Shown here: positions 1,049 to 62,773 of the stretch, in pieces
Layout: each line of letters begins with the position of its first letter
How positions within the stretch are numbered: the stretch's first letter is position 1
Virus record (IMG/VR): IMGVR_UViG_3300028840_003906
Strand: one strand, 5' to 3'
Length of the DNA: 64,000 nt
From: a virus
Notes under the pieces: model-generated
Told to the model about the DNA's origin: nothing
What the model saw: the letters and a program-made list of their open reading frames with translations, nothing else
Database searches by the model: none
Made by a program: the position numbers and the translations under genes

Positions 1049-1062
1049 CGAACTTGAGTTCG
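1049..1062. promoter_or_regulatory. CGAACTTGAGTTCG palindrome (LexA-type box), copy 1
   Basis: exact 14-mer just after tRNA-Ser. Confidence 0.75.
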
Positions 1063-1093
1063 TCTGGCTCTTTGAAAATCGAGGATCCGTATT

Positions 1094-1181
1094 TGAGGAT
1101 TGACCGAGTGGCAATGGTACTCGACTCGAAATCGAAGGTCGTCGCGAGAGTGGCGCGGGGGTTCGATTCCCTCATCCTCAG
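1094..1181 (+). tRNA. tRNA-Ser(CGA)
   Basis: TGAGGAT/ATCCTCA acceptor, loop CTCGAAA, long variable arm, G73. Confidence 0.88.
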
Positions 1182-1187
1182 AATTGT

Positions 1188-1260
1188 GGTGGAGTTGGTC
1201 GAGCGGTTTAGACACAGGGTTGTGGCCCCTGGCACGCGGGTTCGAATCCCGTACTTCACC
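1188..1260 (+). tRNA. tRNA-His(GTG)
   Basis: 8-bp acceptor with G-1:C73, CAGGG-TTGTGGC-CCCTG arm. Confidence 0.92.
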
Positions 1261-1265
1261 CTGAT

Positions 1266-1356
1266 GGAGGGCTGGCCGAATGGTAAGGCACCCGGCTTGA
1301 ACCCGGAGGTCTTCGGCTTGGCGGTCGGAGTGTGGGATCGTTCCCCACGCCCTCCT
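1266..1356 (+). tRNA. tRNA-Ser(TGA), atypical T-loop
   Basis: GGAGGGC/GCCCTCC acceptor, loop CTTGAAC, long variable arm; T-loop ATCGTTC. Confidence 0.8.
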
Positions 1357-1361
1357 CTGAT

Positions 1362-1437
1362 GTCTCGGTGGCCGAGAGGCAAGGCATCTGGTTGCAACCC
1401 AGAATGGACGCCGGTTCGAATCCGGCCCGAGATTCCA
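1362..1437 (+). tRNA. tRNA-Cys(GCA)
   Basis: TCTGG-TTGCAAC-CCAGA arm, U73, encoded CCA. Confidence 0.93.
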
Positions 1438-1448
1438 TGGAGGTGGTC

Positions 1449-1676
1449 ATGAAAAAGAAGGATGCGAGGTACAGGCAATGCTTCATTGGGCGAGGATCGG
1501 TGCGCTGGACGGCGTGGCTGCCCGAGGGGCTGGCGAAGACGGGAAAGACGATCATTCCCCGGGGCCAGGAGCCTGCCACGGTTCTGAGGGCGTTCAGGGG
1601 CGTCTCAATCCGGCACGGAGATCTTATGGACCTTGCTTCGGAGCACAGGTACCACCGAGGACGGACAGATATTTGA
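1449..1676 (+). CDS. small hypothetical protein inside tRNA array
   Basis: GGAGGT RBS then ATG, 75 aa, fills gap between two tRNAs. Confidence 0.5.
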   Translation: MKKKDARYRQCFIGRGSVRWTAWLPEGLAKTGKTIIPRGQEPATVLRAFRGVSIRHGDLMDLASEHRYHRGRTDI

Positions 1677-1765
1677 GGAGGGCTGGCAGAATGGCATTGC
1701 GTCGGGTTGCTAACCCGTAGCCGTCGACTTGTATCGGCGCGGGGGTTCAAATCCCTCGCCCTCCG
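1677..1765 (+). tRNA. tRNA-Ser(GCT)
   Basis: GGAGGGC/GCCCTCC acceptor, loop TTGCTAA, long variable arm, G73. Confidence 0.9.
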
Positions 1766-1770
1766 CAGAT

Positions 1771-1844
1771 GGGTGGGTAGCTTTAATTAGGAAAGTCCCC
1801 GACTCCAAATCGGGAGGTTGAAGGTTCGAATCCTTCCTCACCTG
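1771..1844 (+). tRNA. tRNA-Trp(CCA)
   Basis: CCCGA-CTCCAAA-TCGGG arm, canonical T arm. Confidence 0.9.
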
Positions 1845-1850
1845 CTACAT

Positions 1851-1925
1851 GCGCCTCTGCCCCAAACAGGAAGAGGGACTGGTTTCAAAAGTCAGGAGAT
1901 CTCGGTTCGAGTCCGAGGGGGCGCA
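1851..1925 (+). tRNA. tRNA-Leu(CAA) with short variable loop
   Basis: GCGCCTC/GGGGCGC acceptor, CTGGT-TTCAAAA-GTCAG arm, 5-nt variable loop, A73. Confidence 0.75.
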
Positions 1926-1996
1926 CAGTTTGAATCTCACGAAATCGGATCCGTGAGAAACAAGGTGTCTTGTCGATCATGGATGAGGCACAACAT

Positions 1997-2082
1997 GCGC
2001 GAGTAGTCGAATGGAACAGACGGTGGACCGAGGCTCCACGGCTCCCGAAAGGGCACTCCGGGTTCGAATCCCGGCTCGCGTA
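1997..2082 (+). tRNA. tRNA-Leu(GAG)
   Basis: GTGGA-CCGAGGC-TCCAC arm (C33), long variable arm, A73. Confidence 0.88.
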
Positions 2083-2086
2083 CTAC

Positions 2087-2159
2087 GGATGGGTAGCTCA
2101 GTAGGTAGAGCACCGGATTGAAGATCCGGGTGTCGTCGGTTCAACTCCGACCCCATCCA
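2087..2159 (+). tRNA. tRNA-Phe(GAA)
   Basis: CCGGA-TTGAAGA-TCCGG arm (G37). Confidence 0.92.
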
Positions 2160-2164
2160 CTCTT

Positions 2165-2250
2165 GCGCGGATAGTCGAATGGAACAGACGGTGCGTTCAG
2201 GCCGCACGGCTGGCGAAAGCCCATTGAGGGTTCGAATCCCTCTCCGCGTA
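2165..2250 (+). tRNA. tRNA-Leu(CAG)
   Basis: GTGCG-TTCAGGC-CGCAC arm, long variable arm. Confidence 0.92.
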
Positions 2251-2256
2251 CTATTT

Positions 2257-2340
2257 GGGTCGGTAAACGCTAATGGTAGGCGAGCGGGCTGTAACCCCGT
2301 GGTGCTAGTCATCCTGTAGGTTCGAATCCTACCCGGCCCA
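2257..2340 (+). tRNA. tRNA-Tyr(GTA)
   Basis: GCGGG-CTGTAAC-CCCGT arm, long variable arm, A73. Confidence 0.9.
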
Positions 2341-2341
2341 C

Positions 2342-3820
2342 TCAGTTAATTTCTTTCCGATCCTCTGGGACCGGGTAGAGGCTTCCGGTCTGAATGAAGT
2401 CGTGGATGGCCGGGGAGATGTAGAGTCCTTCTGTCGCGCGCGTGATGGCGACGTACAGCAGGTTCATCTCGTCGTCGTCCAGGATTCCCTCCTGCGGATC
2501 CTCGTTGTGCGCGTCGATCAATCTGGTGAAGTCGCTCGCCAGATGCACAAACGGGAACTCCATGCCCTTGGATCGGTGTCCGGTGACGTAGGAGAGGTCG
2601 GAGAACCTTGCTCCAACGTCTCTGACCCTGACGATTTTCATGACCTCCGGAATCTGGCCGCCATACTCCTCGGCGATGATGCAGGCCGACTCGATCTCGG
2701 CGTTCTTTGCTTTCTGGCCGTACTCCCTCAGTTCCAGGAAATCGGAGAAGGACTTGATGAGCGGGTCTTTGGCCAATTCCTTCTGATCCGAGAAGAGGTA
2801 GTAGGCGTCGAGGATCGTCTGGAATCGGTAGTTCTTGTGATCTCCGCCGACAAACCCGAATGTTTTGTTTCCGTGGTGGCACTCGGAGGCGACCGATCGG
2901 AAGATGCTGATGTTCCCCCGGGAGATTGTGGTGTGCTTGATGCTGTCCGGGCAGTTGCTGATGTGAACCTTTGTGTGAAGTGGCTCGAAGCCCCTCAGGG
3001 GCAGTTTCTCGCCCTTGAATCGCCGGAGGAGGGTTGATGCCAAGTTGGCGACGTCCGGCCCAAAACGGAAGCTCTGGGAGAGCGAGAGGCGGATTGCGTC
3101 GTCGACCAGATCGAGTGCGTCGATGGCGCCCCTCCATCCGTAGATGGCTTGGTACGGATCCCCGACGACGATCTTCCTGCAGGTCTGGTTCTTGAAGATG
3201 TCCCAGACGCAGGGGGTGGTATCCTGGGCCTCGTCCAGGAGGATGTAGTTGAAGTTGAGCTTCGGCCCGGAGAGCTGGTAGAGCTTCAGGTATCCGTCGT
3301 GGGTCATCGGGAGGCTCTTGGGTCTCATGCTCTTCATGTCCTCCCAGACGAGGTCGGCCATCTGGGTGAGTGGCGGGATGTAGTCGGACTCGCTGTAGAA
3401 ATCGCGGACATGCTGGGGGATGTGGCTGTTGTTGATGTCCTCGTCTGCGGATGCCAGGAACACCCCCAGGATGTCGACCACGAAGTTGGCGATGACGAAG
3501 TTGGTCTCCAGGAGCCGGACGACGCGCCAGAGCGGAAGGCTGCCGCTGAGCATGCCTTTGTCTCGGTACTCGGCGCCGAAGGCGTGGTAGGCCAGGGAGT
3601 GGGTTGTCCTGCAGGAGACGTTCGCGGGCATCTTCCGCTCCGCTTCCAGCTGGATTGTCTTGTTGTAGGCAGCGTAGAGGATCTTGTCCACCGGTCGCTC
3701 TTCCGCGTACTGCTGGAGGGTGAATGTTTTCCCGGTACCGGCGAATGCCGAGATGAGGAGGGTTCCTCCCGCGTCCGGGGTGGCGCCGATGATGGCTTTC
3801 TGTTCATCTGTCAGGTTCAT
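2342..3820 (-). CDS. UvrD/FBH1-like superfamily 1 DNA helicase
   Basis: AFAGTGKT Walker A, LLDEAQD, VGDPYQAIYGWRG, SFRFG, HRSKGMEF, YVAITRA. Confidence 0.92.
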   Translation of the reverse strand: MNLTDEQKAIIGATPDAGGTLLISAFAGTGKTFTLQQYAEERPVDKILYAAYNKTIQLEAERKMPANVSCRTTHSLAYHAFGAEYRDKGMLSGSLPLWRVVRLLETNFVIANFVVDILGVFLASADEDINNSHIPQHVRDFYSESDYIPPLTQMADLVWEDMKSMRPKSLPMTHDGYLKLYQLSGPKLNFNYILLDEAQDTTPCVWDIFKNQTCRKIVVGDPYQAIYGWRGAIDALDLVDDAIRLSLSQSFRFGPDVANLASTLLRRFKGEKLPLRGFEPLHTKVHISNCPDSIKHTTISRGNISIFRSVASECHHGNKTFGFVGGDHKNYRFQTILDAYYLFSDQKELAKDPLIKSFSDFLELREYGQKAKNAEIESACIIAEEYGGQIPEVMKIVRVRDVGARFSDLSYVTGHRSKGMEFPFVHLASDFTRLIDAHNEDPQEGILDDDEMNLLYVAITRATEGLYISPAIHDFIQTGSLYPVPEDRKEIN

Positions 3821-4008: not shown

Positions 4009-5025
4009 ATGAGAAACGAGACCAAGATCACTGCGGTCAAAACGTCGGACGGATTCTATATCACGGCGGCAATTGGACGTCATATAAGCGGGACTGGGCT
4101 TGAGGGACTTTTTCTCAACGGGGTGTTCGTGGCCGATTACGCCAAGGATACATTTCACAAGGAATGGCTGCATGTTCCGGAGGAGGTGAAGACCCTGCAA
4201 AGGAAGCTCCCCAGAGAGCGATTGAATAGGAGAATGCAGCTCATTGACAAGTCGATCGAATCCGAGAAGATACCGGCCACTATTGAGTTCGGGGATATTG
4301 TCGATCTTGATAGAGGCTGCGTGGAATGGGAAGAGGAGTATTCTCATCTGGTGTCGCTGTACAAGCAGGTCTGGGACGACGGGCCTGAGAGGTTTGAGGA
4401 TGTGGAGTTCTCTTTTGATGTCGTCCTGAGTGTCGACAAGATCGACGACGGCGGTCCGTTTGCATACTCTGTGGAGAGGGACAGAAAGCAGAAGCTGATT
4501 GAGCGGCACGATATCCAGGTCGATCTCATGGGGCAGATCATGTTTCCGGAGATCGCGCATCCTGCTCTTGCCTGCAAGCTTTCTTCGCAGCAGACATACG
4601 ACATCGTCCGGCAGCATGTGAAGGACAACCTGAATCCGGTTGCGGCTGAGATCACCTCCGATTACGACTTCTGTTTCACCGTGAAGAAGAAGATTCGTCT
4701 GGCTGAGGTGGAGAAGTTCACCGTCGATGTGAACAACAACATCTTCCAGAAGAGAAAACGCAAGCCGAAATACGAGGAGCGATACAGGAGAGAGCGTCTC
4801 GTAGAGGTCTTCGAGATGACAAGTGAGGAGAGGGGATACCAGGGTTACACACGCATCAAAGGGTTCACCGGAAAGAACCAGCGGGATCTGAAGGAAAAGA
4901 TCGACTTCTATCTGGAGTCTCTGATGGAATTCCTGAACAAGCCGCTGGTCGATTGCCCGGACTGCAAAGGGCTCGGCGTTGTTCTCGATAGCCAGACGGA
5001 GTCCGAGCGTAGGGATTCGAAGTAA
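4009..5025 (+). CDS. phage hypothetical protein with C-terminal CxxCxGxG
   Basis: 338-aa ORF downstream of TTGACA promoter. Confidence 0.75.
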   Translation: MRNETKITAVKTSDGFYITAAIGRHISGTGLEGLFLNGVFVADYAKDTFHKEWLHVPEEVKTLQRKLPRERLNRRMQLIDKSIESEKIPATIEFGDIVDLDRGCVEWEEEYSHLVSLYKQVWDDGPERFEDVEFSFDVVLSVDKIDDGGPFAYSVERDRKQKLIERHDIQVDLMGQIMFPEIAHPALACKLSSQQTYDIVRQHVKDNLNPVAAEITSDYDFCFTVKKKIRLAEVEKFTVDVNNNIFQKRKRKPKYEERYRRERLVEVFEMTSEERGYQGYTRIKGFTGKNQRDLKEKIDFYLESLMEFLNKPLVDCPDCKGLGVVLDSQTESERRDSK

Positions 5026-5028
5026 AAA

Positions 5029-5042
5029 CGAACTTGAGTTCG
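5029..5042. promoter_or_regulatory. LexA-type box copy 2
   Basis: CGAACTTGAGTTCG between stop and next RBS. Confidence 0.75.
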
Positions 5043-5055
5043 CTAGGAGGATGGA

Positions 5056-5745: not shown

Positions 5746-5746
5746 G

Positions 5747-6709: not shown

Positions 6710-6718
6710 ATCCCAGAA

Positions 6719-7330: not shown

Positions 7331-7657
7331 ATGAGACACAAGGTCAAGATTGAGGAGATCATTCGGGAGTCGGACGGGGCGTCGTTCACCCGGGTCACTC
7401 TTCATGACCTCGCGGGATCTGACCTGTTTTCAGTGGAGTGCACAGGAGAGAATCCGAAGGAGGCACTTCTTGCCCTCGCTCACAGGATGCGACTGATTTC
7501 TGATGACGCTGCAGATGTTGCCGGGATGCTGTTTGACCAGGCGTGGGTCCCGGAGTTGACGGATACGAACTCAAGTTCGTCTCGCGGAATGCCGATCCTC
7601 CGTCTCGTGCCCTCGGAGGAAGATCTCCTGAAGGGTGATGAAGAAAAAGGAACTTGA
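7331..7657 (+). CDS. hypothetical protein
   Basis: 108-aa ORF. Confidence 0.55.
   Translation: MRHKVKIEEIIRESDGASFTRVTLHDLAGSDLFSVECTGENPKEALLALAHRMRLISDDAADVAGMLFDQAWVPELTDTNSSSSRGMPILRLVPSEEDLLKGDEEKGT
7566..7579. promoter_or_regulatory. LexA-type box copy 4 (reverse orientation)
   Basis: CGAACTCAAGTTCG inside ORF, 80 nt before tnpB. Confidence 0.65.
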
Positions 7658-7659
7658 GA

Positions 7660-8892
7660 ATGTCGAAGGATAAGCCACAACTTCGGGCATACAAGACGGA
7701 GGTTGATCCCAACAATAAGCAAGTCTCTCTTCTCTTGGGTTGCTGTGGGATGCGCCGTTTTGCCTGGAATTGGGCATTGGAGAGAATTAATTACAGGGAA
7801 CTTGAACCCAACGCCATGAAGTTGCACAAAGAGTGGAACAAGTGGAAAAAGGACAATCTGCCTTGGTGGCCTCAGTATTCCAAGGCAGCGCCCCAAGAGG
7901 CATTTCGTGATCTGCAACAAGCATTCTCCAGGTTCTTCAATGGACTCAAAGGCAAAGGACCAAGAGTCGGATACCCCAAGTTCAAGAACAAGCGTAAGTC
8001 GAAAAGGTCTTTTCGTTTGACCGGTGTGATTCATGTAGAGAAGAACCGGATCAAGGTACCCCGGATCGGGTGGTTGAGACTCAAGGAAAAAGCATATATC
8101 CCAGTTGGTGTGAAGGTGGCTTCTGTGACCATCTCCGAACGTGCTGGTCGATGGTTTGTGTCGGCACTTTGTCATCCCCACCAACAAGAGCCACCTCTGT
8201 TTCAAGGCGGAAAAGTTTTGGGCGCTGATCTTGGAAGCAAGGTTCTGGCTTATATTTCGGATGAACGACGTTTTGATAATCCCAAAGCATACCGCAAGCT
8301 GGAGAAACAACTGGCAAAGTTACAAAGGAGGTTTGCCAGACAACAAAAAGGAAGTCGTAGGAGAGAACGCACCCGTCAACGGATTGCTCGACTTCACTAC
8401 AAGATCGCCTGTATCCGTTTGGATTCGACACACAAGGCAACGACTGATATTGCGAGAACCAAGGAATTGTCAGTCGTTGTGCTTGAGGATCTCAATGTGA
8501 AGGAGATGGTGAAGAATCGGAGGTTTGCAAAGACGATCCAGGATGCCGCATGGGGAGAATTTCGCCGTCAGGTGGAATACAAGTCCAGGTGGAACGGATT
8601 TGAGATGGCACTAGCGCCAAGGTTCTTCCCGTCGTCAAAGACCTGTTCGGGGTGTGGTCATGTCAAATCCGAATTGGGTTTGGATGAACGAGTGTACATC
8701 TGTGGTGCATGTGGTTTGGAAATTGACCGTGACCTGAATGCGGCTTTGAATTTGAGGTTTTGGTATATAGAGAAAAACACCGTCAGTTCGACGGGAAGTG
8801 GACGTGGAGAAGATGTAAGACCCGGATCTACTTGTAGTAAGGGGCAGACTTCGTTGAAGCGTCAACCAAACATCAATTTGCCCTCCGGGTAG
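7660..8892 (+). CDS. tnpB: TnpB RNA-guided endonuclease
   Basis: RAYKTEV HTH, GADLG (RuvC-I D), VVLEDLNV (RuvC-II E), SSKTCSGCG...CGACG zinc ribbon, DRDLNAALNL (RuvC-III D). Confidence 0.95.
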   Translation: MSKDKPQLRAYKTEVDPNNKQVSLLLGCCGMRRFAWNWALERINYRELEPNAMKLHKEWNKWKKDNLPWWPQYSKAAPQEAFRDLQQAFSRFFNGLKGKGPRVGYPKFKNKRKSKRSFRLTGVIHVEKNRIKVPRIGWLRLKEKAYIPVGVKVASVTISERAGRWFVSALCHPHQQEPPLFQGGKVLGADLGSKVLAYISDERRFDNPKAYRKLEKQLAKLQRRFARQQKGSRRRERTRQRIARLHYKIACIRLDSTHKATTDIARTKELSVVVLEDLNVKEMVKNRRFAKTIQDAAWGEFRRQVEYKSRWNGFEMALAPRFFPSSKTCSGCGHVKSELGLDERVYICGACGLEIDRDLNAALNLRFWYIEKNTVSSTGSGRGEDVRPGSTCSKGQTSLKRQPNINLPSG

Positions 8893-9594: not shown

Positions 9595-9595
9595 T

Positions 9596-12946: not shown

Positions 12947-13147
12947 ATGTCATTCGAGATCGGTGATGCCCAGATTGTTCATGAGACAGAGGATTCGCTT
13001 TTCATTGAGGCTCCGAAGTTCGGAGGGGATTCAGTCTGCATTCCGATGAGGCAGGTCTGGTTCAGTGAGTCTGATGCGAAAAAAGTGGGGGATGTCGGGA
13101 CGATTGTTGTCTCGGATTGGCTTGCAAAGAAAAGGGGATGGGTTTGA
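12947..13147 (+). CDS. hypothetical protein
   Basis: 66-aa ORF after TTGGTT-17-TATCAT. Confidence 0.6.
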   Translation: MSFEIGDAQIVHETEDSLFIEAPKFGGDSVCIPMRQVWFSESDAKKVGDVGTIVVSDWLAKKRGWV

Positions 13148-13734
13148 AGAAATACAATGTGATCCTTTCGGATTGCCCTTGGCAGTATGCGGACCGAGCC
13201 GGGTCCCGTGGGGTCGAGAACCACTACCGGACCATGAGCAACAAGGACCTGATGCACCTTCGTGTGGGAGACCTTGCCGCCGAGGATAGCGTCCATTTTC
13301 TGTGGGTCACGGGTCCTTTTATGCTGACGGGGATTCGTCTCCTGCAGGCGTGGGGGTTCACGTACAAAGGGGTGGCTTTCACTTGGGTGAAGAAGAACAA
13401 GAAGGCCGACACGTTCTTTACTGGGATGGGCCACTACACACGGAGCAATGCCGAGTTCGTTCTCATTGGGACGCGCGGAAGGTTGGAGCGCAAGTCCAGG
13501 AGTGTGCATTCGATCGTGGTGGCTCCGGTCATGAAGCATTCGGCGAAGCCAGAGGATGTTCGGGATAGGATCGTCGAGCTGTATGGTGATGTTCCAAGGC
13601 TGGAGATATTCGCTCGCAGCAAGTGTGAGGGTTGGGATCAGACTGGTCTGGAGCTGGACGGCAAGGATGTGAGGGACTTCATTGATGAGGTATCTCCGGC
13701 CCCGAGGCTGTCAGCTCTGTTGTCGCGAACTTGA
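13138..13734 (+). CDS. MT-A70 family adenine methyltransferase
   Basis: ILSDCPWQY, LWVT, WGFTY, GMGHYTRSNAE, HSAKP, LEIFAR. Confidence 0.92.
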   Translation: MGLKKYNVILSDCPWQYADRAGSRGVENHYRTMSNKDLMHLRVGDLAAEDSVHFLWVTGPFMLTGIRLLQAWGFTYKGVAFTWVKKNKKADTFFTGMGHYTRSNAEFVLIGTRGRLERKSRSVHSIVVAPVMKHSAKPEDVRDRIVELYGDVPRLEIFARSKCEGWDQTGLELDGKDVRDFIDEVSPAPRLSALLSRT

Positions 13735-13739
13735 GTTCG
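13726..13739. promoter_or_regulatory. LexA-type box copy 5
   Basis: CGAACTTGAGTTCG overlapping the stop codon. Confidence 0.75.
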
Positions 13740-17909: not shown

Positions 17910-17923
17910 CGAACTTGAGTTCG
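17910..17923. promoter_or_regulatory. LexA-type box copy 6
   Basis: CGAACTTGAGTTCG intergenic. Confidence 0.75.
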
Positions 17924-26152: not shown

Positions 26153-27373
26153 ATGGAATCAATTATCACGAGTTTGCTGGACAACGACATGTACAAGTTC
26201 TCGATGCAGAGTGCTGCGTTCGAGCTTTTTCCTGATGCGATGGTCGAGTATGCCTTGATCTTCCGGCATGAGGCGGGGCTTCCGGCTGGGTTCAGAGTAT
26301 GTCCTTCGGGGTTTGTTGCGGAGCTTCGGCGCCAGATCGATGCGCTTTGCGAACTCAAGTTCGCCGAGGATGAGATTGACTATCTCTGTCAGATTTGTCC
26401 TTTCTTGAGTAGCGAGTATCTGGACTGGCTCCTGAAGTTCAAGTTGTCATCGCTGAATATTCGCGTCATGGACAACGGCGTGGCCATGCCGGGGATCAGG
26501 ATCCAGGGGTCTTGGATCGATACGATCCTCTTCGAGGTTCCATTGATGGCAATCATCTCGGAGTTGTACTTCAAGATGAGCCCGCCGTCTCGCAGGCGAC
26601 CGATTGCTGTCCTGGATCAGCAGGACATGGGAAAGGCTGTTGCTCTGTCTGAGGTGGCGCCGTTCGTTGAGATGGGAACGCGCAGGCGGTTTTCGAAGTC
26701 AAATCAGAAGCGTGTCGTCAGCATTCTGAAGAACTACGGTGGCATGAATTTCATGGGGACCAGTAATGTTCTTCTTGCGCGCGACCTTGGGATCAAGCCG
26801 ATCGGGACCATGGCGCACGAGTGGATCATGTTTCACGCGGCGGCATACGGGTACCGGTCAGCGAACCAGAAGGCCATGGAGGGATGGGAGGATGTGTTCG
26901 GTGAGAATCACGACATGCTCCTGGCCCTGACCGATACGTACACGACGGGGACATTCTTCGAGAACATGGATCCCGGCAACGGGATACCGACTGACATTTT
27001 TGATTGGAAGGGGTTCAGACAGGACAGCGGGGATCCTTCGGTCTTCATTTCGAGGCTCAGGAGGTTCTTCTTCGAGAACCAAGCTCCGATGGGGAACAAG
27101 ACGGTCGTGTTTTCGGATGGGCTGAGCGTCGATGATGTCCAGGGGATCCATGGCCAGGTCGAAGGCGACTTCAAAGACGTTTACGGGATCGGGACACACT
27201 TCTCGAATGATGTCGGTGCGAAACCGTTGAACATGGTCATAAAGATGACGGCTGCTGACCCATGTGGGTGCGGGTACATGATCCCAACGGTGAAGCTGTC
27301 GGATACCAAGGGGAAGCACACGGGGAGATCTGAAGTGGTCGAGAACTGCAAGTGGCAGCTTGGAATCGAATAG
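26153..27373 (+). CDS. pncB: nicotinate phosphoribosyltransferase
   Basis: LLDNDMYKFSM, ILFEVPLMA, EMGTRRR, GTSN, GTMAHEW, LTDT, RQDSG, VFSDGL, GIGT. Confidence 0.95.
   Translation: MESIITSLLDNDMYKFSMQSAAFELFPDAMVEYALIFRHEAGLPAGFRVCPSGFVAELRRQIDALCELKFAEDEIDYLCQICPFLSSEYLDWLLKFKLSSLNIRVMDNGVAMPGIRIQGSWIDTILFEVPLMAIISELYFKMSPPSRRRPIAVLDQQDMGKAVALSEVAPFVEMGTRRRFSKSNQKRVVSILKNYGGMNFMGTSNVLLARDLGIKPIGTMAHEWIMFHAAAYGYRSANQKAMEGWEDVFGENHDMLLALTDTYTTGTFFENMDPGNGIPTDIFDWKGFRQDSGDPSVFISRLRRFFFENQAPMGNKTVVFSDGLSVDDVQGIHGQVEGDFKDVYGIGTHFSNDVGAKPLNMVIKMTAADPCGCGYMIPTVKLSDTKGKHTGRSEVVENCKWQLGIE
26350..26363. promoter_or_regulatory. LexA-type box copy 7 (reverse, intragenic)
   Basis: CGAACTCAAGTTCG within pncB. 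Confidence 0.6.
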
Positions 27374-35741: not shown

Positions 35742-35755
35742 CGAACTTGAGTTCG
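35742..35755. promoter_or_regulatory. LexA-type box copy 8
   Basis: CGAACTTGAGTTCG 20 nt upstream of TTGACA at 35776. Confidence 0.78.
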
Positions 35756-35836
35756 CATTCCCCGAAAAAACGAGTTTGACAACAGACGATCCGATGATCT
35801 ATAAATAGTCATCTGAGTTGTTGATGAAAGGTTGAC

Positions 35837-36164: not shown

Positions 36165-36482
36165 ATGTCAAAAACACGTATCGATCAGTCTGTCATTGAT
36201 GCCGTCAAAGAGATCGTGATGATCGTTCGGCACTTCGTAGATCACCCGGAGGATGTTGAGGTCAATGTGCGGCCGGGTCCGTATCGAATCACGGTCGAGC
36301 TATACACGCACGCGCGCGACGTCGGCCAGGTTGTCGGAAGGAATGGGCATGTCGCGTCGTCGCTTCGATCCTTCCTGACGGCGGTTGCTGGGAAGCACAG
36401 AATCAAGGTCGACCTTGACTATGTCACCGAGGAAGATAACGCCAGGAGAGCCCAGAAAAGTGGGCCTATTCGAGTTGACTAA
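36165..36482 (+). CDS. khpA: KhpA-like KH-domain RNA-binding protein
   Basis: VDHPEDVEV, DVGQVVGRNG (GxxG). Confidence 0.85.
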   Translation: MSKTRIDQSVIDAVKEIVMIVRHFVDHPEDVEVNVRPGPYRITVELYTHARDVGQVVGRNGHVASSLRSFLTAVAGKHRIKVDLDYVTEEDNARRAQKSGPIRVD

Positions 36483-44402: not shown

Positions 44403-44416
44403 CGAACTTGAGTTCG
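44403..44416. promoter_or_regulatory. LexA-type box copy 9
   Basis: CGAACTTGAGTTCG 3 nt before tRNA-like gene. Confidence 0.75.
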
Positions 44417-44419
44417 CAT

Positions 44420-44492
44420 GGGTTGGTAGCTCAATTGGTAGAGCATCGCGTTACCTATAGGGCGTATGCTGGTTCGAATCCGGCCCTGTCCA
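44420..44492 (+). pseudogene. degenerate tRNA (poorly paired anticodon stem)
   Basis: intact D arm GCTC/GAGC and T arm; anticodon stem has 2 mismatches. Confidence 0.6.
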
Positions 44493-44502
44493 TTGGAGGT
44501 AG

Positions 44503-46259: not shown

Positions 46260-46847
46260 ATGAGTAGAGGAATCATTGTTTTGTTGTGCGTGATCGGAGT
46301 GGTCGTTTTGTTCGGAGGGGGGTATGGGTGTAGCGCGCTCGGGTACCGACAGGACTGCGTGAAAGCAGAGGCCGGGATCCAGGCGCAGTACAAGCAGAAC
46401 CAGAACAACTACGACAACATGTGGAAGCGCTTCAAGGAGGTCGCTGCGGTCCCGAAGATGTACGCCAAGGACCTGAAGGATCTGTGGGACGGCGCCATGA
46501 AGCAGCGGTACCAGGGCGAGGGGAACGGACAGCAGCCGATCTTCAAGTGGATCCAGGAGCACAACCCGCAGCTCGATGCGTCGGTTTACAAGCAGCTGCA
46601 GCGAACCCTGGAGGCTGGGAGGAAGTCCTTCGAGGCCGACCAGAAACAGCTCATCGCGAAGAAGCAGCAGTACGAAGTGGTCCTGAAAGGCAACCGATCT
46701 CTGTTTTTCAACATGTGGTTCGGGTTTCCGAGGATCGATCTCGACGAGTTCGACATCGTGACATCGGACAAGACGGAGGAGGTTTTCAAATCGAAGAAGG
46801 ACAATGGCGTCCTGTTCGGTGACGACGTGAAGCCTGCGGAGAAATGA
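46260..46847 (+). CDS. LemA-like membrane-anchored protein
   Basis: TM anchor then EAGIQAQY...YDNMWK; resemblance by recall. Confidence 0.65.
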
Positions 46848-47323
46848 AGAACCTGACCAACCGACAGGAGGAGGTCCTGAGAGTCATCGTCGAATTCATC
46901 CGCGAGCATATGGCCCCTCCGACGATCCGGGAGATCGGGGACATGGTTGGGATTTCCTCGACGAATGGAGTGATGGACCATCTCAAGGCGCTCCAGAGAA
47001 AGGGTTGGCTCAAAGAGGGGATAGAGGGGCACGCGAAGAGCCGCAAGGTTGCCCTCACGGGGAGGGCGCGGCTCTACCATGGGCTGTTCTTCTCTCGGGA
47101 GGATGTCGGCCTGTACAAGGCAGCTGTGGCCGACTTGTCGGCTCTTTTCGATGCCGGGGCGGATGGTCTCGATTTGTCCGTGTGTACGACGGCAGAGCAC
47201 GGGGCGGATGTTGCCTTGCGGACAGTGAAGAAGATGCTGGAGGCTCACGTAAAAATCGATCCTTTGGAGAAAAAAGAGGTTGACAAACCCATCGAACAGC
47301 AGCATGATACACGGGCGAGTTGA
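46844..47323 (+). CDS. LexA-type DNA-binding domain protein lacking S24 peptidase domain
   Basis: LTNRQEEVL...PPTIREIG...[17 protein letters not shown]; 159 aa. Confidence 0.88.
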
Positions 47324-47643: not shown

Positions 47644-48006
47644 GGGTCCGACACGGTTTCGACTTGCATGAACGAAGTGTGTAGTGCAGGCTCCGGATGG
47701 TCTATCCGGATCAAAAATTGACCGAACAAGTAATTGTCGAAAATTACGAACCAATGCAGGCGGCTGCTTAAACCACCCCTGCCGTCAGACTGGCCGAGCT
47801 TCTCATAGGCCCGATCCTGGCGTCATCAATGAGGATCGCCCTGCGCGGGCAACCCTAAGCGCACGGGTTAAAAAAATGGGTTGCGAAACCTCCGCTGCTC
47901 AGTCTGGTTGCAAACGGGTGGCGGTTGAAATTATGACCGGGCTAAGCCTGTGAATGATCTGCTCATGGAGCATGTGAGGACCCGAGTTCGACTCTCGGCG
48001 GATCCA
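47644..48006 (+). ncRNA. ssrA: tmRNA
   Basis: GGGTCCG/CGGATCC acceptor with G3:U70, GGTTTCGAC, CTAAGCCTGTGAA, T arm, tag ORF ending AAA-stop. Confidence 0.93.
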
Positions 48007-48129
48007 CTTTCGGCTTCGGAACAGTGCCGTAAACTGTTGCCCTGGTGGAGGTGCCGGGAGGCGCCCCGGGCCAAGTAAACTTGCTACAGTTGATCCATGC
48101 GGACGCTGGCAGATTGAAAGGCCCATTTT

Positions 48130-48168: not shown

Positions 48169-48815
48169 GGAGCGTTATGGATGGAAGATCAAAGGGTGGA
48201 GTTGAGAATGGAAAAAGGCTGAGGTCCCGTGCGGTTGCCAGGTATTACGAGGATCCCAATGTTTGTGAGAATTGTGGTTCTGTCATCAGGGTTGGAGATG
48301 GTGACAGGGTTTACGATGTGAGGAAGAAGCGTTTTTGCAACAGAAGTTGTGCCGCCTCGTTCAATAACCGGAAGCATCCAAAGAGATTAGCTCGGGAGAC
48401 TTGTGTGTGCGAGGATTGCGGTGATGTTGTTGTCCTGAAGCCGCAGCGTGGTGGAGGATACGTCCAGAGGCGGTTTTGTGACACGTGTGCGAAGGCTAGG
48501 AGGATAGGAGGGAAGCCTATTGGTCTACGCACAAAGGGGGAGGTTTTCTCTGGGTCAAAGAACTGGATATCGGCACGTTCCAGCATAAGGAAGGATGCTT
48601 GGCGAGTGTTTGAGGGTTCAGGGGCCGAGAGGGTGTGTGAGGTGTGCGGGTATAGTTTGCATGTGGATGTGTGTCACATCAAACCGGTTTCGGATTTTGG
48701 GGATTCGGCTCTCGTGAGCGAAGTCAATGATATCTTAAATCTCATTGCTTTGTGTCCCAACCATCACTGGGAATACGACAATGGGCATCTTGATTTGATG
48801 CGGGACAGACAGTAA
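48144..48815 (+). CDS. HNH homing endonuclease
   Basis: CEVCGY...HVDVCHIKP...NLIALCPNHHWEYD; start uncertain. Confidence 0.9.
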   Translation: MVTHGSQPGSVMDGRSKGGVENGKRLRSRAVARYYEDPNVCENCGSVIRVGDGDRVYDVRKKRFCNRSCAASFNNRKHPKRLARETCVCEDCGDVVVLKPQRGGGYVQRRFCDTCAKARRIGGKPIGLRTKGEVFSGSKNWISARSSIRKDAWRVFEGSGAERVCEVCGYSLHVDVCHIKPVSDFGDSALVSEVNDILNLIALCPNHHWEYDNGHLDLMRDRQ

Positions 48816-49120: not shown

Positions 49121-49134
49121 CGAACTTAAGTTCG
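49121..49134. promoter_or_regulatory. LexA-type box copy 10 (perfect palindrome)
   Basis: CGAACTTAAGTTCG. Confidence 0.75.
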
Positions 49135-56444: not shown

Positions 56445-57821
56445 ATGGACAGGAGTAGTATCATTCGGGCCTTTTCGAAGGCCGTGAACCGTAAACATGG
56501 TTGCACGATGGGGCTCGCGAGGAACATTGCGAGCGTGGACATTCCGAGGCTCGACACGGGGAGTTTGAGCTTCAATGTGGCGCTTGGAGGTGGCATCCCT
56601 GTTGGGCGTCTGACAATGTTTCGGGGAAAGTACTCGTCTGGAAAGACGACGGAGGCTCTTCGGGTTGCTGCGAACGCGCAGGATCTTTGTGCGAACTGTC
56701 TGCGTCCGGTCGACGATTTCGCGGTGATCGAGTCTGGTGTTGATGACGAAACTGGCGAGGTGATATACGAGGCGATTGGGACCTGTGACTGCTACAGCGA
56801 AGGTCTCTTCAAGCCGGTGCCGTATCCTGAGGAGTATTCGGACCGGATGAAGGGAACGTTCAAGCAGATCGAGATCGAGGTGATGGACGAGAAGTCCGGG
56901 AAGATGAAGAAGAAGAAAACGACTTTGTACAAGGAGCGGCTCAAGAGGTATGAGGAGAATTCATACGAGCCGTATCGCATCGTCTTCTTTGACTTCGAGG
57001 GGACCCTGGATCTGGAGTGGGCGGAGCGCATTGGTGTGGATACGAGGATTTTGCTAGTGGATCGACCTGGTACCGCAGAGGAGGGCATCGACGTGTATGA
57101 CGAGCTACTCCGTACGGGCGCGGTGGACCTCTTCCTGCTCGATTCGATTGCTGCCATGACGCCCAGCGTGGAGATTGAGAAGAGCACGGAGGATGGGCGC
57201 ACACGGGCCGCACAGGCGATCCTAGTGAACCAGTTCGTGCGGAAGATCACTGCTTCGGCCAATGATTGCAAGAAGTTCTATGATCGGTCCGTGACGCAGA
57301 TCTGGATCAATCAGGAGCGCGACAGCATGGATCCGTTCAACCCGAAGACGATGCCGGGTGGGCATGGGCAGGAGTTCGGTGCTTCGGTGATCGTCTCGTT
57401 CTGGCCGAGCAAGTGGAACTCGGACGCCATGGATGATGATGTCAAAAAGGACTTCCAGATTCAGATCGGGAAGGAAGTCCGGCAGAACTTCAAGGTCGAG
57501 AAGAGCAAGGTATCGACTCCGAAGGCGACCGGCATGTTCGTCATGTGTATCAGTGGTGCAGAGTCCGGGCAGATTGATGAGTTCAAATATGTCCTGGATC
57601 AGGGGGAGCGGTATGGGCTCTGGCACGAAGAAGGGAAGGCGCCGAAGAAGAAGTGGTATCTTTCTGATGAGGAGTTCACGAAAAAGGCGTCGCTCCTGGC
57701 TCGGGTTCGGGAGCCAGAAGTTTTCAAGTCGATGAAGAAGGAGCTTCTGAGAAGGATGCTCGAAAAGATCAAGGGAACGGCAGAGGGAATCGAAAGGGAA
57801 GCCGAGAATGCCGAAGGGTAG
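56445..57821 (+). CDS. recA: RecA/UvsX-like recombinase with Cys-containing insertion
   Basis: TGSLSFNVALGGGIPVGR, GKYSSGKT, DFEG, DSIAAM, INQER, PGG. Confidence 0.9.
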   Translation: MDRSSIIRAFSKAVNRKHGCTMGLARNIASVDIPRLDTGSLSFNVALGGGIPVGRLTMFRGKYSSGKTTEALRVAANAQDLCANCLRPVDDFAVIESGVDDETGEVIYEAIGTCDCYSEGLFKPVPYPEEYSDRMKGTFKQIEIEVMDEKSGKMKKKKTTLYKERLKRYEENSYEPYRIVFFDFEGTLDLEWAERIGVDTRILLVDRPGTAEEGIDVYDELLRTGAVDLFLLDSIAAMTPSVEIEKSTEDGRTRAAQAILVNQFVRKITASANDCKKFYDRSVTQIWINQERDSMDPFNPKTMPGGHGQEFGASVIVSFWPSKWNSDAMDDDVKKDFQIQIGKEVRQNFKVEKSKVSTPKATGMFVMCISGAESGQIDEFKYVLDQGERYGLWHEEGKAPKKKWYLSDEEFTKKASLLARVREPEVFKSMKKELLRRMLEKIKGTAEGIEREAENAEG

Positions 57822-58559: not shown

Positions 58560-58564
58560 GTTCG
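58551..58564. promoter_or_regulatory. LexA-type box copy 11
   Basis: overlaps stop codon; 9 nt upstream of TTGAAT-17-CAATAC. Confidence 0.78.
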
Positions 58565-58641
58565 TTTTAGGAGTTGAATAAACAGCCAAAGTGTGGCAAT
58601 ACTCTTGTTTCGGATCACTGCCGATGATGGCGGGAGGAAGC

Positions 58642-61334
58642 ATGGCCGACGCAGAAAAATGTCCAGAGTGTGGTGAGCCTGCTGTGGCTCGGTGTGGGTG
58701 TCCGATCAGAGAGCGTGTTTGCGCGAATCGGCACTACTGGCACACTTGCCCGGTGCACGGGACGATTGTGAATGATATCGGGGATCACAAGAATCCATGC
58801 GCGTGTACGTGCGGGAGGGGTGACAATGATGAATGATGAGAATGGATTGTGTGGATTTTGTCGGGCTGATCTGTCGAATCTTGAGTCGTCCGAGAAGGTT
58901 CAAATGGGAGGAAGTTGCCATCTGACGGGCGAGTTTAGCTTCTTCGTCTGCAAGAGGTGCTTCGATGAAAAGATAGATGACGGCGGTGGCGTGTCTGTTG
59001 GTGATTCTGCTCCATGGAGAGAGTATGACCACGAAGGGAAAGCCGAATCGGGAGAAGAGTAAGTCTCCGAGGCATAGCCTTCACTGGTGCTACGCTTGTG
59101 ATCTGGCGTTGGTGGGAGATGGGCAGAAGTGCCCGAACTGCGGAACGAGAAACCTTCCGAAGAGGAGGAAGAAGTGAGTTTTCCTGACAATCCAAAGCGT
59201 CCACTGAGGCGGATCATTACGGAGTCGATGTTCGATTTCGGCTTCTGTGACTTCTGCGGGAGTTCCCTGAAGAGTCGATTCATCTTCTTCGGTTCTCGTG
59301 GTTGCGTGCAGCCTCTTTGCGAGAACTACTACCGGAGGGATCGCCAGGCCACCGTTCGTTGTCCTTGGTGCGGAGACGATACGGTGGTCGAAAAGGGGAA
59401 AGATGGGCGCTGTACATGGTGTGGAAACTATCATAGGTGGGAAGGCGACCGGCTGATGTGGAATCAGGTCAAAGGGTAGCATGGGCAACATGAGAAGATT
59501 GGAAAAGATGTATGGAGGGTACGACGGGGACAAGTGTTCGAATGTGTACCGGTCTACCCACCAGCTTGAAATGTGTGGGTATGGCCCTGATGAAATACAT
59601 CCTGTCTCTGTGAGAGAGGCGGCGGAAGGAGAGCAGGAGACGCATTGGGGTTGGGAGAGTTCGGAAGATCGCTCGTGGAGCATGATATGGCCGCATCTCA
59701 CGCAACTTGAAATGTGTTTCACTTACGGGATTGAGGCTGCCGAGTCTTCTGGTAGTGGGCGTCGCGTCCGGCTGGTTGTTGATCGGACAAAGTGAAAGGG
59801 CTGTGCGATGGTGAAGATGAGTTGCTCAGAGTGTAGCATCGAAGGCGTCGCTGGCTTGAGCATTGGATTCAGGGCAGAAGTAGACCAGGATGCTGTACAT
59901 GAAGCTGGCGGGTTTTCTGGCGCCAAGGATGATGATGGTGTTGGAGCTTCGCTCGTTATAACCCGCATGGTTACGGAGGCGGATGTTCCTGACGAGGAGT
60001 TTTACGATTGGGCCAGGGGTGAGATGGAACTCCAGGACAGCGGGGCCTTCAGTGTATGTCCACCTGCTGGCGAGGTCATAACGGTTTTTAAGCAGAGAAG
60101 GTTTGCGTGGCCCAGGGTCTATGAGTTCAATGATTCATACGTCGAGAAGGCCACGCCATCCGATGACGGAGAGCGGATGGAGGCTATATTTAAATACTCC
60201 AGCATGAAGGAATGGCCCTGGTACCGTGCTGCCTGGTGGTGGGTGAAGAGCTGGTTCGGGAGGTAGGAATGGGTGTGATCGGCTACTTGAAGTACCTGTT
60301 CGGAAAGGACAGCCGCACCGACTACGAGCGGGCGGTTGGCCTCGGCCTGACGGACAAGAACCGCTGGGAGGATGACATCGATCATCATCCGATGTCCGAG
60401 CGTCTGATGGCGTTTCTGAAGGATCACGACTTTCAGGATTACGATGACTTCTTTTGCTGGAAGTCTGGTGGTGACGGGGACAACGGGGAGGTTCTCATGT
60501 ACGAGATGGATGCTTTTTTCGAGCTGATGGAAAAAGGAGGATGATTCCATGATCAAAGCTGGGATGACACCGTTGAATCCAGAAGTGGTTCTGGATCGTG
60601 ACAGTAGAAGGCTCCTGTTCCACTGCAAGCTGAAGATTCAGCGTGAGGACAATTGCATCGAGGTATCGGCCAACTCGGGTACCCCAGAGGGGGCCGTGGA
60701 TGGTGTCGAGTTGGCCATCAAGAATCTGCTCGGAGCAGCGACTGTCGAGCTGAAGGAGTGGCGCGAGATCGTGATGAAAGACAAGGCTGGTGACTGAATG
60801 GGCAGGGTGAGAAAACATCCGAGGTTCGGTCCAGTGTGCATGTGTGACTGCCACAAGGATGGAACAGACATTCGCGAGTTTATGCCGTGCTGCATGCTGT
60901 ACCGGGCGAAGTATATCAACGCGGACGGGACGCTGGACGAGGAGCGGCTGCTGGCGATCTACGAGGAGCGTGGCATTCCTCTGTGGACATGGAGAGATCA
61001 CCTCCGGTCCTGGTGGAGGGGGACCTGGATCTTCAAGAGGTGGGACCGGTGGATGTGGTTCCGTCGCCTCAGGAGGTTTAGGATGCCCGCGATTCGGAAG
61101 GCATACCCTTGTTTGAACGCGGACGATATCGTGAGCACGCAGCCGATGGCAGTCCCTGTGGTGGGAGTAGGCTTTGGTGCAAGTGGGACGATCAAGAAGT
61201 CCCATGTTCGCGAAGATGGGGTGCGCGTGATTGATGATTTCGATCTCAAGACGGTGAGCATTGTGAGTGAGGATCAGTTGTTGGATCCTCGTTGTGCGAT
61301 TGAGTATGGAGAAGAGGATGGGCGACAAAAGTAA
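58642..61334 (+). other. run of about 9 small coupled hypothetical ORFs, several Cys-rich
   Basis: ORF track 58642-58836, 58772-59062, 58977-59177, 59129-59479, 59481-59795, 59808-60266, 60269-60544, 60549-60797, 60798-61334; several starts uncertain. Confidence 0.6.
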
Positions 61335-62064
61335 GATTCACTGGACAGATGCGACGTGGAACCCAGTGACTGGGTGTGCCAGGGTTTCGGGTGGGTGTTG
61401 GAACTGCTACGCGGAGAAGATGCACAAACGACTCCGGGCTATGGGGAGTGAGAAGTACAATCACGATTTCAGTGAGGTTCGATGTCACGATGACGAGAAG
61501 CTGCTTTCTCAGCCAGCGCGATGGGCGAAGCCTCGCAGGATCTTCGTGAACTCGATGGGGGATTTGTTTCACCCGGATGTTCCGTTCGAATTCATGGACA
61601 AGGTTTACCAGGCTATGATGGCCGGTCCGCAGCACACTTATCAGGTACTCACGAAGAGAGCTGGTCGGATGAAGGCATATTTGGATTCTGCTCCGTTCGA
61701 TGTTCCAGGGAATATCCATCACGGTGTGACCGTAGAGAACGACTTCAATACTGATCGGATAGACACTCTGCGGCGCACCAGGTGTCCGGTCAAGTTCGTT
61801 TCTTTCGAGCCGCTTCTGAGGTTGATCGGGTTTGTTGATTTGAACGGGATCGACCAGGTCATCATCGGTGGAGAGAGTGGTCCCGGGGCGCGTGAGATGA
61901 GAGAAGTTTGGGCTGAGTCGATCGTGGCAGAGGCGGATCGGGACGGTGCCAAGGTTTTCATGAAGCAGTTTGGAACCTTCTGGGCTAATGAAAACTGTCT
62001 CAAGGGCAAGGGTGATGACATGGCGTCTTGGCCCAGCTGGGCAAAGCGCAGGGAGCAGATCTGA
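61318..62064 (+). CDS. DUF5131 (phage Gp37/Gp68) radical-SAM-like protein
   Basis: IHWTDATWNPVTGC..VS.GC.NCYA, FVNSMGDLFH, LTKR, SFEPLL, IIGGESG. Confidence 0.93.
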   Translation: MGDKSKIHWTDATWNPVTGCARVSGGCWNCYAEKMHKRLRAMGSEKYNHDFSEVRCHDDEKLLSQPARWAKPRRIFVNSMGDLFHPDVPFEFMDKVYQAMMAGPQHTYQVLTKRAGRMKAYLDSAPFDVPGNIHHGVTVENDFNTDRIDTLRRTRCPVKFVSFEPLLRLIGFVDLNGIDQVIIGGESGPGAREMREVWAESIVAEADRDGAKVFMKQFGTFWANENCLKGKGDDMASWPSWAKRREQI

Positions 62065-62160
62065 TGGTGATGGGAACGATTGGTGGAGTTGCAGCTGCCG
62101 TGATACTGGTGTGGCTCGTCTGGGTTGAGTTGAAAGAGAAACGAAAGAAAGAGGAGAGAG

Positions 62161-62724
62161 ATGCAGCAAAAAGAGAAAGAAGCCCTGAGTGATATTCTTT
62201 TCGGTGATGGGAGGAAGGCTACGGCTGACGAGATCGTCGTCGGCGTGTCTCGACTGAAGGAGGCATCTGCAGGTCAGGCCAAGATCATTCAGGGGCTGAA
62301 GGAGAACATCCGCGCCAAGGATGTGGAGATCGACAGGCTTACGATCCAGGCCAATGCGGCGAAGGCATCTGGTGCCGCGAAGCATGAGGAGGTTCTTGCT
62401 CAGCTCAGGGAGTTCTACGGGAATGGCCTGACTTGGGACAACCTCGTCGAGATCGCCGGAGGAGCCGTCACACACCTTCGATCGCAGAAGATGCTCATGG
62501 AGGCTGCCGACACCGAGATGCGGCGCCTGAAGCGCATTGTCGAGGGGATGCCGGGCGAAGAGGCGTCGAACCATGGAAGCATTCCGGATTTGAAGGAGCC
62601 ACCGAGTGCGACCATCTTCGAGCATCGCCTGAGTCGCCTGGAGGATGATCTGGCTGTCTTTCGCATGGCTGGAAGGGCGATCTCGCGCTTTTTCGATCTG
62701 GACTCAAGGGGGCAGAAAGAGTAG
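62161..62724 (+). CDS. coiled-coil hypothetical protein
   Basis: 187-aa ORF. Confidence 0.65.
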   Translation: MQQKEKEALSDILFGDGRKATADEIVVGVSRLKEASAGQAKIIQGLKENIRAKDVEIDRLTIQANAAKASGAAKHEEVLAQLREFYGNGLTWDNLVEIAGGAVTHLRSQKMLMEAADTEMRRLKRIVEGMPGEEASNHGSIPDLKEPPSATIFEHRLSRLEDDLAVFRMAGRAISRFFDLDSRGQKE

Positions 62725-62759
62725 ACTCAAGCCTGCTGGGGATTACAATCCCATAGGTG

Positions 62760-62773
62760 CGAACTTGAGTTCG
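62760..62773. promoter_or_regulatory. LexA-type box copy 12
   Basis: CGAACTTGAGTTCG 27 nt before ATG 62801. Confidence 0.75.

Follow-up and report, generated by a model that had tools for sequence, protein, structure and literature searches.

The palindrome and its copies

The stretch of DNA considered here, referred to as the window, comprises 64,000 nucleotides (nt) of the IMG/VR virus record IMGVR_UViG_3300028840_003906 and corresponds to positions 120-64119 of a 124,752-bp IMG/VR phage contig (~68% complete), which is called genome G000 when it is set beside its relatives. The window contains twelve copies of a palindrome with the arms CGAAC and GTTCG, along with a gene for a truncated homologue of LexA, P0001, of 159 amino acids (aa), and an earlier sequence-only reading had joined the two in a regulon run by a LexA mimic. 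Comparison of nine large genomes (G000, G002-G004 and G006-G010) points instead to a site on double-stranded DNA for a symmetric protein that has co-evolved with it and that is probably not P0001. The copies of the palindrome, P0001 and the one strong promoter found beside a copy are listed below, with open reading frame abbreviated to ORF.

1049..1062, palindrome copy between tRNA-Ser 954-1043 and tRNA-Ser 1093-1182
5029..5042, palindrome copy 3 nt past the stop of a Gad1-like gene and 13 nt ahead of the next start codon
6719..6732, palindrome copy 9 nt past a stop codon, with TTTT right after the copy
7566..7579, palindrome copy within a small ORF upstream of a TnpB gene; orthologous site in G003
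13726..13739, palindrome copy that supplies the stop codon of an MT-A70 methyltransferase through its central TGA; same place in G002, G003 and G004
17910..17923, palindrome copy in a 51-nt intergenic gap, the next start 17 nt on
26350..26363, palindrome copy within a 406-aa gene, at the peptide CELKFA; the G002 orthologue has CELQFA
35742..35755, palindrome copy with a conserved promoter 20 nt downstream, a layout common to G002, G003, G006 and G007, each in its own version of the motif
35776..35805, + strand, sigma-70-type promoter TTGACA-18 nt-TATAAA, serving a 105-aa gene (35837-36154) and a KH-domain gene (36165-36482)
44403..44416, palindrome copy 17 nt past a stop, followed 2 nt on by a tRNA-like gene; G002, G003 and G004 have the orthologous site
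46844..47323, + strand, P0001, truncated LexA homologue of 159 aa, a winged helix and helical tail with no S24 peptidase
49121..49134, palindrome copy with a TTAA centre, 2 nt past a stop codon
58551..58564, palindrome copy that supplies the stop of a Holliday-junction resolvase gene through its central TGA; G002 (GG centre), G003 and G004 have the orthologous site
62760..62773, palindrome copy with a conserved 127-aa gene (62801-63184) starting 27 nt on

A pattern search of the window recovered all twelve copies where the sequence-only reading had placed them. Exact copies of CGAACTTGAGTTCG in the + form, with a TTGA centre, are found at 1049, 5029, 6719, 13726, 17910, 35742, 44403, 58551 and 62760, exact copies in the reverse form, which reads TCAA on the + strand, at 7566 and 26350, and the TTAA-centre variant at 49121 is fully palindromic. 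As had been claimed, such an accumulation is not due to chance, with 25 strand-matches at up to 2 mismatches against 0.69 expected from shuffles and 0 of 100 shuffles attaining 25; one further 2-mismatch match at 54403 is at chance level. The sequence CGAAC-N4-GTTCG is the consensus of the Gram-positive type of LexA box, and all 12 copies fit both it and the shorter GAAC-N4-GTTC, which has 12 matches in the window (1.45 expected), every one of them a copy of the palindrome.

The genome-wide count that had been suggested gives 26 exact copies on the full contig (14 '+' and 12 '-') plus the TTAA variant and a TTGT variant, with 0 copies of the reversed-pattern control. The purine and pyrimidine flanks seen in the window extend to the contig, where a purine at -1 and a pyrimidine at +1 are present in 26/26 exact copies, the flank pairs being A..C in 5, A..T in 6, G..C in 9 and G..T in 6 copies, with no covariation. 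Positions 6 and 9 are T and A, which gives the symmetry R-CGAACT / NN / AGTTCG-Y, and all 16 positions are invariant within one genome. Judged from its letters, the palindrome is thus a 16-bp site made of two 7-bp half-sites (R-CGAACT) flanking a 2-bp centre (TG).

Position relative to genes, promoters and synteny breakpoints

The genes of the contig point almost entirely in one direction, with 186 of the 187 on the + strand in our own ORF map, and although coding sequence takes up 88% of the genome, ~21 of its 28 sites lie at gene boundaries, as do 149 of the 193 sites in seven genomes, which are outside or at the ends of called genes; the maps come from our own crude ORF caller and the division of sites into deep and boundary ones is approximate. 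Ten copies in the window had been placed at gene or RNA boundaries, and ten are indeed at gene or tRNA boundaries, those at 7566 and 26350 being within ORFs. In short gaps the order is stop codon, site, ribosome-binding site, with the end of the site 12-19 nt ahead of the start codon, and in four contig copies the central TGA doubles as the stop codon of the upstream gene. The 127-aa gene at 62801-63184 has a site 27-41 nt upstream in 6 of 7 genomes.

A LexA box would be looked for on or beside the -35 or -10 of a promoter, but most sites are found between a stop codon and a ribosome-binding site instead. A strong promoter lies downstream of 1-3 sites per genome and of 1 of the 28 in G000, the copy at 35742, which is ~20 nt upstream of the -35. 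It had been held that the copies at 35742 and 58551 are just upstream of -35 boxes, and this is right for 35742, with its conserved TTGACA-18-TATAAA, and wrong for 58551, which has no promoter in either scan; the rule-based scan reports nothing after 58551 or 35742, a TATAAA -10 being excluded by its rule. From its placement the palindrome is not, in general, a promoter element.

The position of the sites at gene ends could also suggest recombination or module-junction sequences used in gene shuffling, similar to PeSL cassettes, for which there is a precedent in T4-like phages (PMC2839356, PMC4122927), or to the attC sites of integrons. Site density is raised in a variable region, with 10 sites at 72-96 kb of the contig among genes that have no orthologues. 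However, gene junctions with conserved and non-conserved adjacency bear sites equally often in six pairwise genome comparisons (odds ratios 0.5-1.2, all non-significant), and the module-junction role that the sequence-only reading had offered finds no enrichment of sites at synteny breakpoints in those comparisons. Sites within genes are furthermore conserved at the same codon across the family, and a promoter is joined to so few of the sites that a PeSL-like cassette is a poor model; we consider recombination extremely unlikely as their function.

Related phages and lineage-specific versions of the palindrome

A scan of IMG/VR with the 16-mer returned several large contigs with many copies, and a megablast search of 8 kb against published phages gave no match. 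The relatives with their sites are as follows.

G003, 176 kb with terminal repeats, 22 sites
G004, 157 kb with terminal repeats, 26 sites
G002, 194.9 kb with terminal repeats, CheckV 100% (complete), 30 sites, 20 of them with a GG/CC centre
G006, motif CGAACC-YR-GGTTCG, 33 sites
G007, motif CG[AC]ACA-CG-TGT[GT]CG, 41 sites
G008, motif CGCATG-CG-CATGCG, 13 sites
G009, no repeated motif, 0 sites

Reciprocal best hits with G000 number 88-91 for G002 and G003 and 62 for G004, and the major capsid protein is similar to gp23 of T4 (28-31% identity). The tree of 25 core proteins is ((G002,G003),G000),G004,((G006,G007),G008), and the 14-mer is identical in G003 and G004 though these are 57-68% identical to G000 over the same proteins. 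An alignment of the prohead protease led to 80 related loci, in which the commonest repeated words give the centres CCAG, CCGG, TCGA and ACGT, with CGCAAT-CG-ATTGCG in more distant relatives, and every version of the motif keeps a 6-2-6 layout within a G...C frame. Orthologous gene pairs flank sites in different genomes while the orientation of the site flips freely, spacing along the genomes is fairly even, and G002 shows GG/CC in place of the TG/CA of G000 and G003 at no fewer than six orthologous intergenic positions. It is apparent from these comparisons that the palindrome is a trait of a clade of uncultured 157-195 kb T4-like jumbo phages and that its version differs by lineage.

The same comparison bears on the proposal that the sites are boxes for the LexA of the host, which would either connect the phage to the host SOS response or soak up LexA like a sponge. 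The sequence fits CGAAC-N4-GTTCG, and many lineages keep the CGAAC arms over a range of G+C from 32 to 67%. Natural SOS boxes, however, are unlike these sites in that the latter are invariant at 16 positions in each genome; the sisters G002 and G003 differ in the centre at orthologous sites, G007 takes CGCAC half-sites, and G008 and the distant relatives have CGCATG or CGCAAT in the same layout. As most sites are also away from promoters, wiring to host LexA, which the sequence-only reading had allowed for, has a very slim chance of being correct, given arms and centres that differ between sister phages and sites that are invariant within a genome.

A double-stranded DNA site with a probable co-evolving reader

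Where the arms of the palindrome change between lineages the change is always mirrored, the T/A of positions 6/9 becoming C/G in G006 and A/T in G007. These two positions are symmetric yet unable to pair in a 2-nt loop, which argues for a symmetric reading of double-stranded DNA. In G007 both arms occur freely, with 11 of the 41 sites being CGAACA/CGAACA, 9 CGCACA/CGCACA and 21 mixed, as the binomial expectation has it, and the mixed sites are at gene boundaries as often as the pure ones. Were they RNA, the mixed sites would be mismatched halfway along a 5-bp stem, and because the half-site variants assort independently a hairpin is ruled out as the element conserved there.

A hairpin in the polycistronic transcripts, acting as a processing site, as a 5' or 3' stabiliser or as a weak terminator in the same manner as the intercistronic hairpins of T4, would suit a site that lies between stop codon and ribosome-binding site with the genes on one strand, and some copies with an A-run before and a T-run after them fold at -9 to -10.5 kcal/mol. 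The core stem, however, has 5 pairs, at -4.4 kcal/mol with a z of -0.9, no compensatory pairing was found in the G007 sites or in the contig flanks, and although both orientations occur there are only two loops, which are reverse complements of each other. Such a hairpin is scarcely credible, and with half of the G007 sites unable to pair the RNA-processing site that the sequence-only reading had listed as an alternative goes the same way.

Further evidence comes from places where the site can be followed in its context. Upstream of the 105-aa gene (35837-36154), only the site and the TTGACA-18-TATAAA promoter are conserved in five genomes, each genome having its own version of the site 20-23 nt ahead of the -35. 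Within gene idx175 of the structural module (contig 110915-111772) the codons for the peptide RTQVR spell the site; G006 spells its own motif there by means of synonymous codons, G007 has RTRVR and G008 RMRMR. At the 26350 site it is the change from K to Q, CELKFA to CELQFA in G002, that yields the CC/GG centre of that phage. Lineage-specific versions that include the sites within genes argue for co-evolution with a factor acting in trans. On this evidence the palindrome is a symmetric site on double-stranded DNA, intercistronic and under strong selection, that co-evolves with the phage lineage, and this points to its being read by a symmetric, co-evolving protein, as yet a predicted one.

The LexA-like protein P0001

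The sequence-only reading had recognised at 46844-47323 a LexA winged helix without an S24 peptidase domain and had called it Myxococcus-like, and both observations were borne out. Residues 1-57 of P0001 match PF01726 (LexA_DNA_bind, E 1.7e-20) and the DNA-binding domain of E. coli LexA (1lea, E 1e-7), and in the structural model the winged helix has a pLDDT (predicted local distance difference test) of 84-94, with a helical tail of low confidence. No match to the S24 peptidase (PF00717) was found in the Pfam search, and P0001 has no counterpart of the VAAG cleavage-site and GESM serine blocks that are found in its full-length relatives. The best of these relatives are the N-terminal domains of full-length Myxococcaceae-like LexA (~53% identity), the recognition helix STNGVxDHLKAL is that of Myxococcus-type LexA, and STNxVxD is conserved in three phage proteins. 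The phage also has its own RecA, as had been noted, at 56445-57821 (PF00154, E 3e-35).

A search for related loci with P0001 alone gave no relative. Short LexA forms do occur on a few other phage or plasmid contigs, and those on L013 and L014 have no CGAAC-N4-GTTCG site. The plasmid-like contig L014, which encodes the truncated LexA P0002, carries at 3621-3704 four tandem copies of another palindrome, TCCGAACATTCGGA, within a 641-aa gene just upstream of P0002, and these copies could be an iteron or operator set for that protein.

Among the nine large genomes the LexA domain is present in three, G000, G003 and G004, which share an identical 16-mer, whilst the genes themselves are non-syntenic and 37-40% identical. 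Six-frame searches with Pfam and with our own profile found no PF01726 in G002 or G006-G010, the best hit in G002 having an E of 0.61. The palindrome is nevertheless present in relatives without the gene, the observation that the sequence-only reading had named as telling against itself, with 30 copies in G002, 33 in G006, 41 in G007 and 13 in G008. P0001 is unlikely to be the general binder because these LexA-less relatives keep the sites, and a regulon run by the LexA mimic is at odds above all with the complete G002, which lost or never had the gene that its sister G003 carries, and yet has its sites with invariant arms.

It is still conceivable, though unlikely, that within its sub-clade the palindrome is bound by P0001 and by the G003 and G004 homologues, either acting as the regulator or forming an extra layer over sites that were already there. 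The 4-bp spacing of the CGAAC/GTTCG arms matches the GAAC-N4-GTTC core of LexA boxes, the domain is in all three genomes with a TG centre and absent from the GG-centre G002, the recognition helix is conserved among the three proteins, and a truncated LexA homologue that binds a palindrome is known in GIL01 gp6 (PMC6182141). Decay of the sites would be expected after loss of the binder, however, and G002 has a new centre that is itself invariant; orthologous sites are found in G006, G007 and G008, which have no LexA domain, and the genes are diverged and scattered in genomes whose 16-mer is identical. Boxes read upstream of two Myxococcus-type lexA genes fit CTRHAMRYBYGTTCAGS, so that cellular LexAs with the same helix use a site which has the GAAC-N4-GTTC core in common with that of the phage but mismatches it at 6/17 positions. 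CTRHAMRYBYGTTCAGS is itself not enriched in the window, with 1 match at up to 2 mismatches against 2.0 expected. To judge by its distribution P0001 is an accessory gene carried by a single sub-clade and is probably not what chiefly binds the palindrome; by analogy with GIL01 gp6, its more likely targets are a few phage promoters or the host's own SOS boxes of the Myxococcus type.

Candidates for the binding protein

A 105-aa early protein (35837-36154) is found in all motif-bearing genomes and is absent from the motif-less G009, a site lies upstream of its promoter, and a basic helix, 'RERA-xx-TN', differs between motif classes. An atlas search with it returned only hypothetical proteins, and as a candidate for the binder it is a weak lead. 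The 127-aa gene (62801-63184) has no Pfam or PHROG match, and judged by eye its product resembles a domain of the ASCH/PUA type more than a regulator. An ORF of G002 at 48210-48593 lies close to where synteny would put the LexA-like gene of G003; it contains a stretch similar to a helix-turn-helix (HTH), shows no significant similarity, and was set aside. No protein stood out clearly in a count of the positions that G000, G003 and G004 have in common and at which G002 differs, and wider scans with DnaB and MerR-like alignments yielded 8-9 loci, too few for a covariation test.

The fusion of a ParB_N domain to an N6/N4 methylase, a core protein (contig 66842-68206, L278:6842-8206), has a site upstream in 4 of 7 genomes, ~120 nt away in L278. 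A symmetric double-stranded DNA site could on the same evidence serve some transaction other than transcription, such as compaction or positioning by a ParB/KorB-, Noc- or SlmA-like protein, replication, or nuclease protection or targeting, and the fairly even spacing of the sites and the placing of one ahead of the ParB fusion would agree with this. Such systems, however, usually tolerate sites within genes, those here are strongly intercistronic, and no HTH was detected in the ParB_N-methyltransferase fusion, so that a role of this kind seems very unlikely.

A possible role in transcription

The explanation that we prefer, and consider probable, is that a protein of two-fold symmetry reads the palindrome as a 16-bp site on double-stranded DNA. 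This protein would co-evolve with the lineage, is most likely encoded by the phage and not P0001, and has a roadblock or insulator as its preferred function. We infer that the binder is phage-encoded. An action on transcription elongation, or on the insulation of units, is suggested by analogy with the stoperators of Cluster A phages, taken together with the fact that nearly all genes are co-directional and that strong promoters are few. About 30 copies per genome lie in small gaps between co-directional cistrons, with a few inside genes. By acting as a roadblock to transcription, or as an insulator, the bound protein would split the gene array, ~180 kb on a single strand, into units. Read-through might then be held back until the protein is removed or is titrated out by replication of the genome.

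A number of points weigh against this explanation. Domain searches of the core proteins found no binder and only one HTH, that of a MerR-like protein (43247-43768), which was rejected since its recognition helix does not differ between the CGAACC and CGAACA classes and so does not track the motif. The 105-aa protein is modelled as a simple bundle of helices, without a significant match to any fold and with no recognisable DNA-binding fold. The roadblock role is a best guess drawn from analogy, and the intercistronic placement is counted on the crude gene maps described above. Finally, the arms are those of the classical Gram-positive LexA box and the LexA domain is in exactly the three genomes with a TG centre, a coincidence which may not be accidental.

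A more tentative and far-reaching possibility is a form of genome-wide control that has not been described, in which a symmetric phage protein sits on ~30-40 intercistronic sites, its specificity being re-set time and again along with all of the sites, those within genes included, and acts as a roadblock or timer titrated by replication. In one sub-clade a captured and uncleavable LexA domain could then exploit the likeness of the sites to SOS boxes, either linking or uncoupling the timing of the phage and the SOS regulon of its host.

Whichever protein reads it, the palindrome offers a natural experiment in which one site system can be traced from 75% down to 39% core-protein identity. The symmetric changes in the arms, the independent assortment of half-sites and the coding sequence that is bent to the site make the search for the binder and for its role directly testable. 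It also corrects an error of annotation, as a perfect CGAAC-N4-GTTCG repeat beside a LexA domain is not thereby an SOS regulon.

Other genes of the phage and its relatives

Several further genes may be of interest; coordinates are those of the window unless another source is given. The gene at 4009-5025 (+), after whose stop a palindrome lies, encodes a protein of 338 aa whose match to Pfam Gad1 (Gabija anti-defence 1, E 2e-73) is full-length. A gene of the TnpB / IS605 OrfB type at 7654-8892 (+), with OrfB_IS605, Cas12f1-like TNB and HTH domains, was missed by the codon-usage gene caller, which suggests that it is a recent arrival.

An array of 12 tRNA genes is found at 954-2341 (+), and a phage transfer-messenger RNA with the tag peptide VENYEPMQAAA at 47644-48007 (+). 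The RNA called by ARAGORN at 44419-44493 (+), 2 nt past a palindrome, has a four-base anticodon (ccta) and no amino acid assigned, and could decode a quadruplet codon, act as a suppressor tRNA, or be an RNA that resembles a tRNA.

The KhpA-type KH-domain protein at 36165-36482 (+) (PF13083, E 3.5e-14) is among the best-conserved small proteins of the family, with 70-73% identity in G002-G004, and is predicted to be co-transcribed from the promoter that follows the 35742 site. A UvrD-like helicase at 2342-3820 (-) is the lone minus-strand gene called on the 124.7-kb contig. There are two DNA methyltransferases, one of the MT-A70 type at 13144-13734 (+) and the core ParB_N-N6/N4 methylase fusion at contig 66842-68206. 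A 562-aa protein at 28539-30227 (+) has a weak protein-kinase match (E 3e-7), just below the Pfam cut-off. The orthologues of DnaB are ~2.6 kb in G003 (L142:5601-8204), G004 (L152:16515-19124) and G008 (L269:9589-12174) as against 1.3 kb in G000, G002, G006 and G007; the long calls may be inteins or merged ORFs.

Comparison with known systems

Dispersed invariant palindromes are known from a few phage groups. Within T4-type phages the PeSL cassettes combine a composite early promoter with a hairpin and are linked to indels (PMC2839356, PMC4122927). They resemble the palindrome in being short conserved intergenic elements of T4-like genomes, and the 35742 copy is followed by a promoter of the early type, but most copies here have no promoter, their pairing is not conserved and they have no link to breakpoints.

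A phage protein that consists of LexA's DNA-binding domain alone is of a known kind (PMC6182141). The gp6 protein of GIL01 is a truncated LexA of 66 aa which binds its own palindrome and not the SOS box of the host, and which activates one late promoter from position -43.5 (PMC6182141). P0001 is similar to gp6 in having the DNA-binding domain without the protease, and at 159 aa has in addition a helical tail.

The stoperators of Cluster A mycobacteriophages such as L5 and Bxb1 block transcription elongation in temperate phages with a known immunity repressor, and their versions co-evolve with the binding protein (PMC9283540, PMC6550527). As here, there are tens of near-invariant sites in short intergenic gaps and the versions are lineage-specific. 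Stoperators are, however, asymmetric, bound by a monomer and oriented with transcription, whereas the palindrome is symmetric and is found in both orientations.

The closest published analogue is found in the Cluster O mycobacteriophages such as Corndog, which have 17-bp palindromic repeats, TGTTCGG-NNN-CCGAACA, whose function is still open (PMC4351075). Both systems have tens of copies (>30 per genome in Cluster O), invariant arms (7-bp), an asymmetric centre and no bias of orientation, both are mostly intergenic with some copies in genes, mostly not at promoters or rearrangements, and the Cluster O repeats are likewise predicted to bind a dimeric protein. The lineage here, that of T4-like jumbo myoviruses, is unrelated to Cluster O and the centre of the site is 2 bp rather than 3 bp. 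What sets the palindrome apart further is that it can be traced down to 39% core identity, with symmetric changes in its arms and with copies inside genes that track the lineage.

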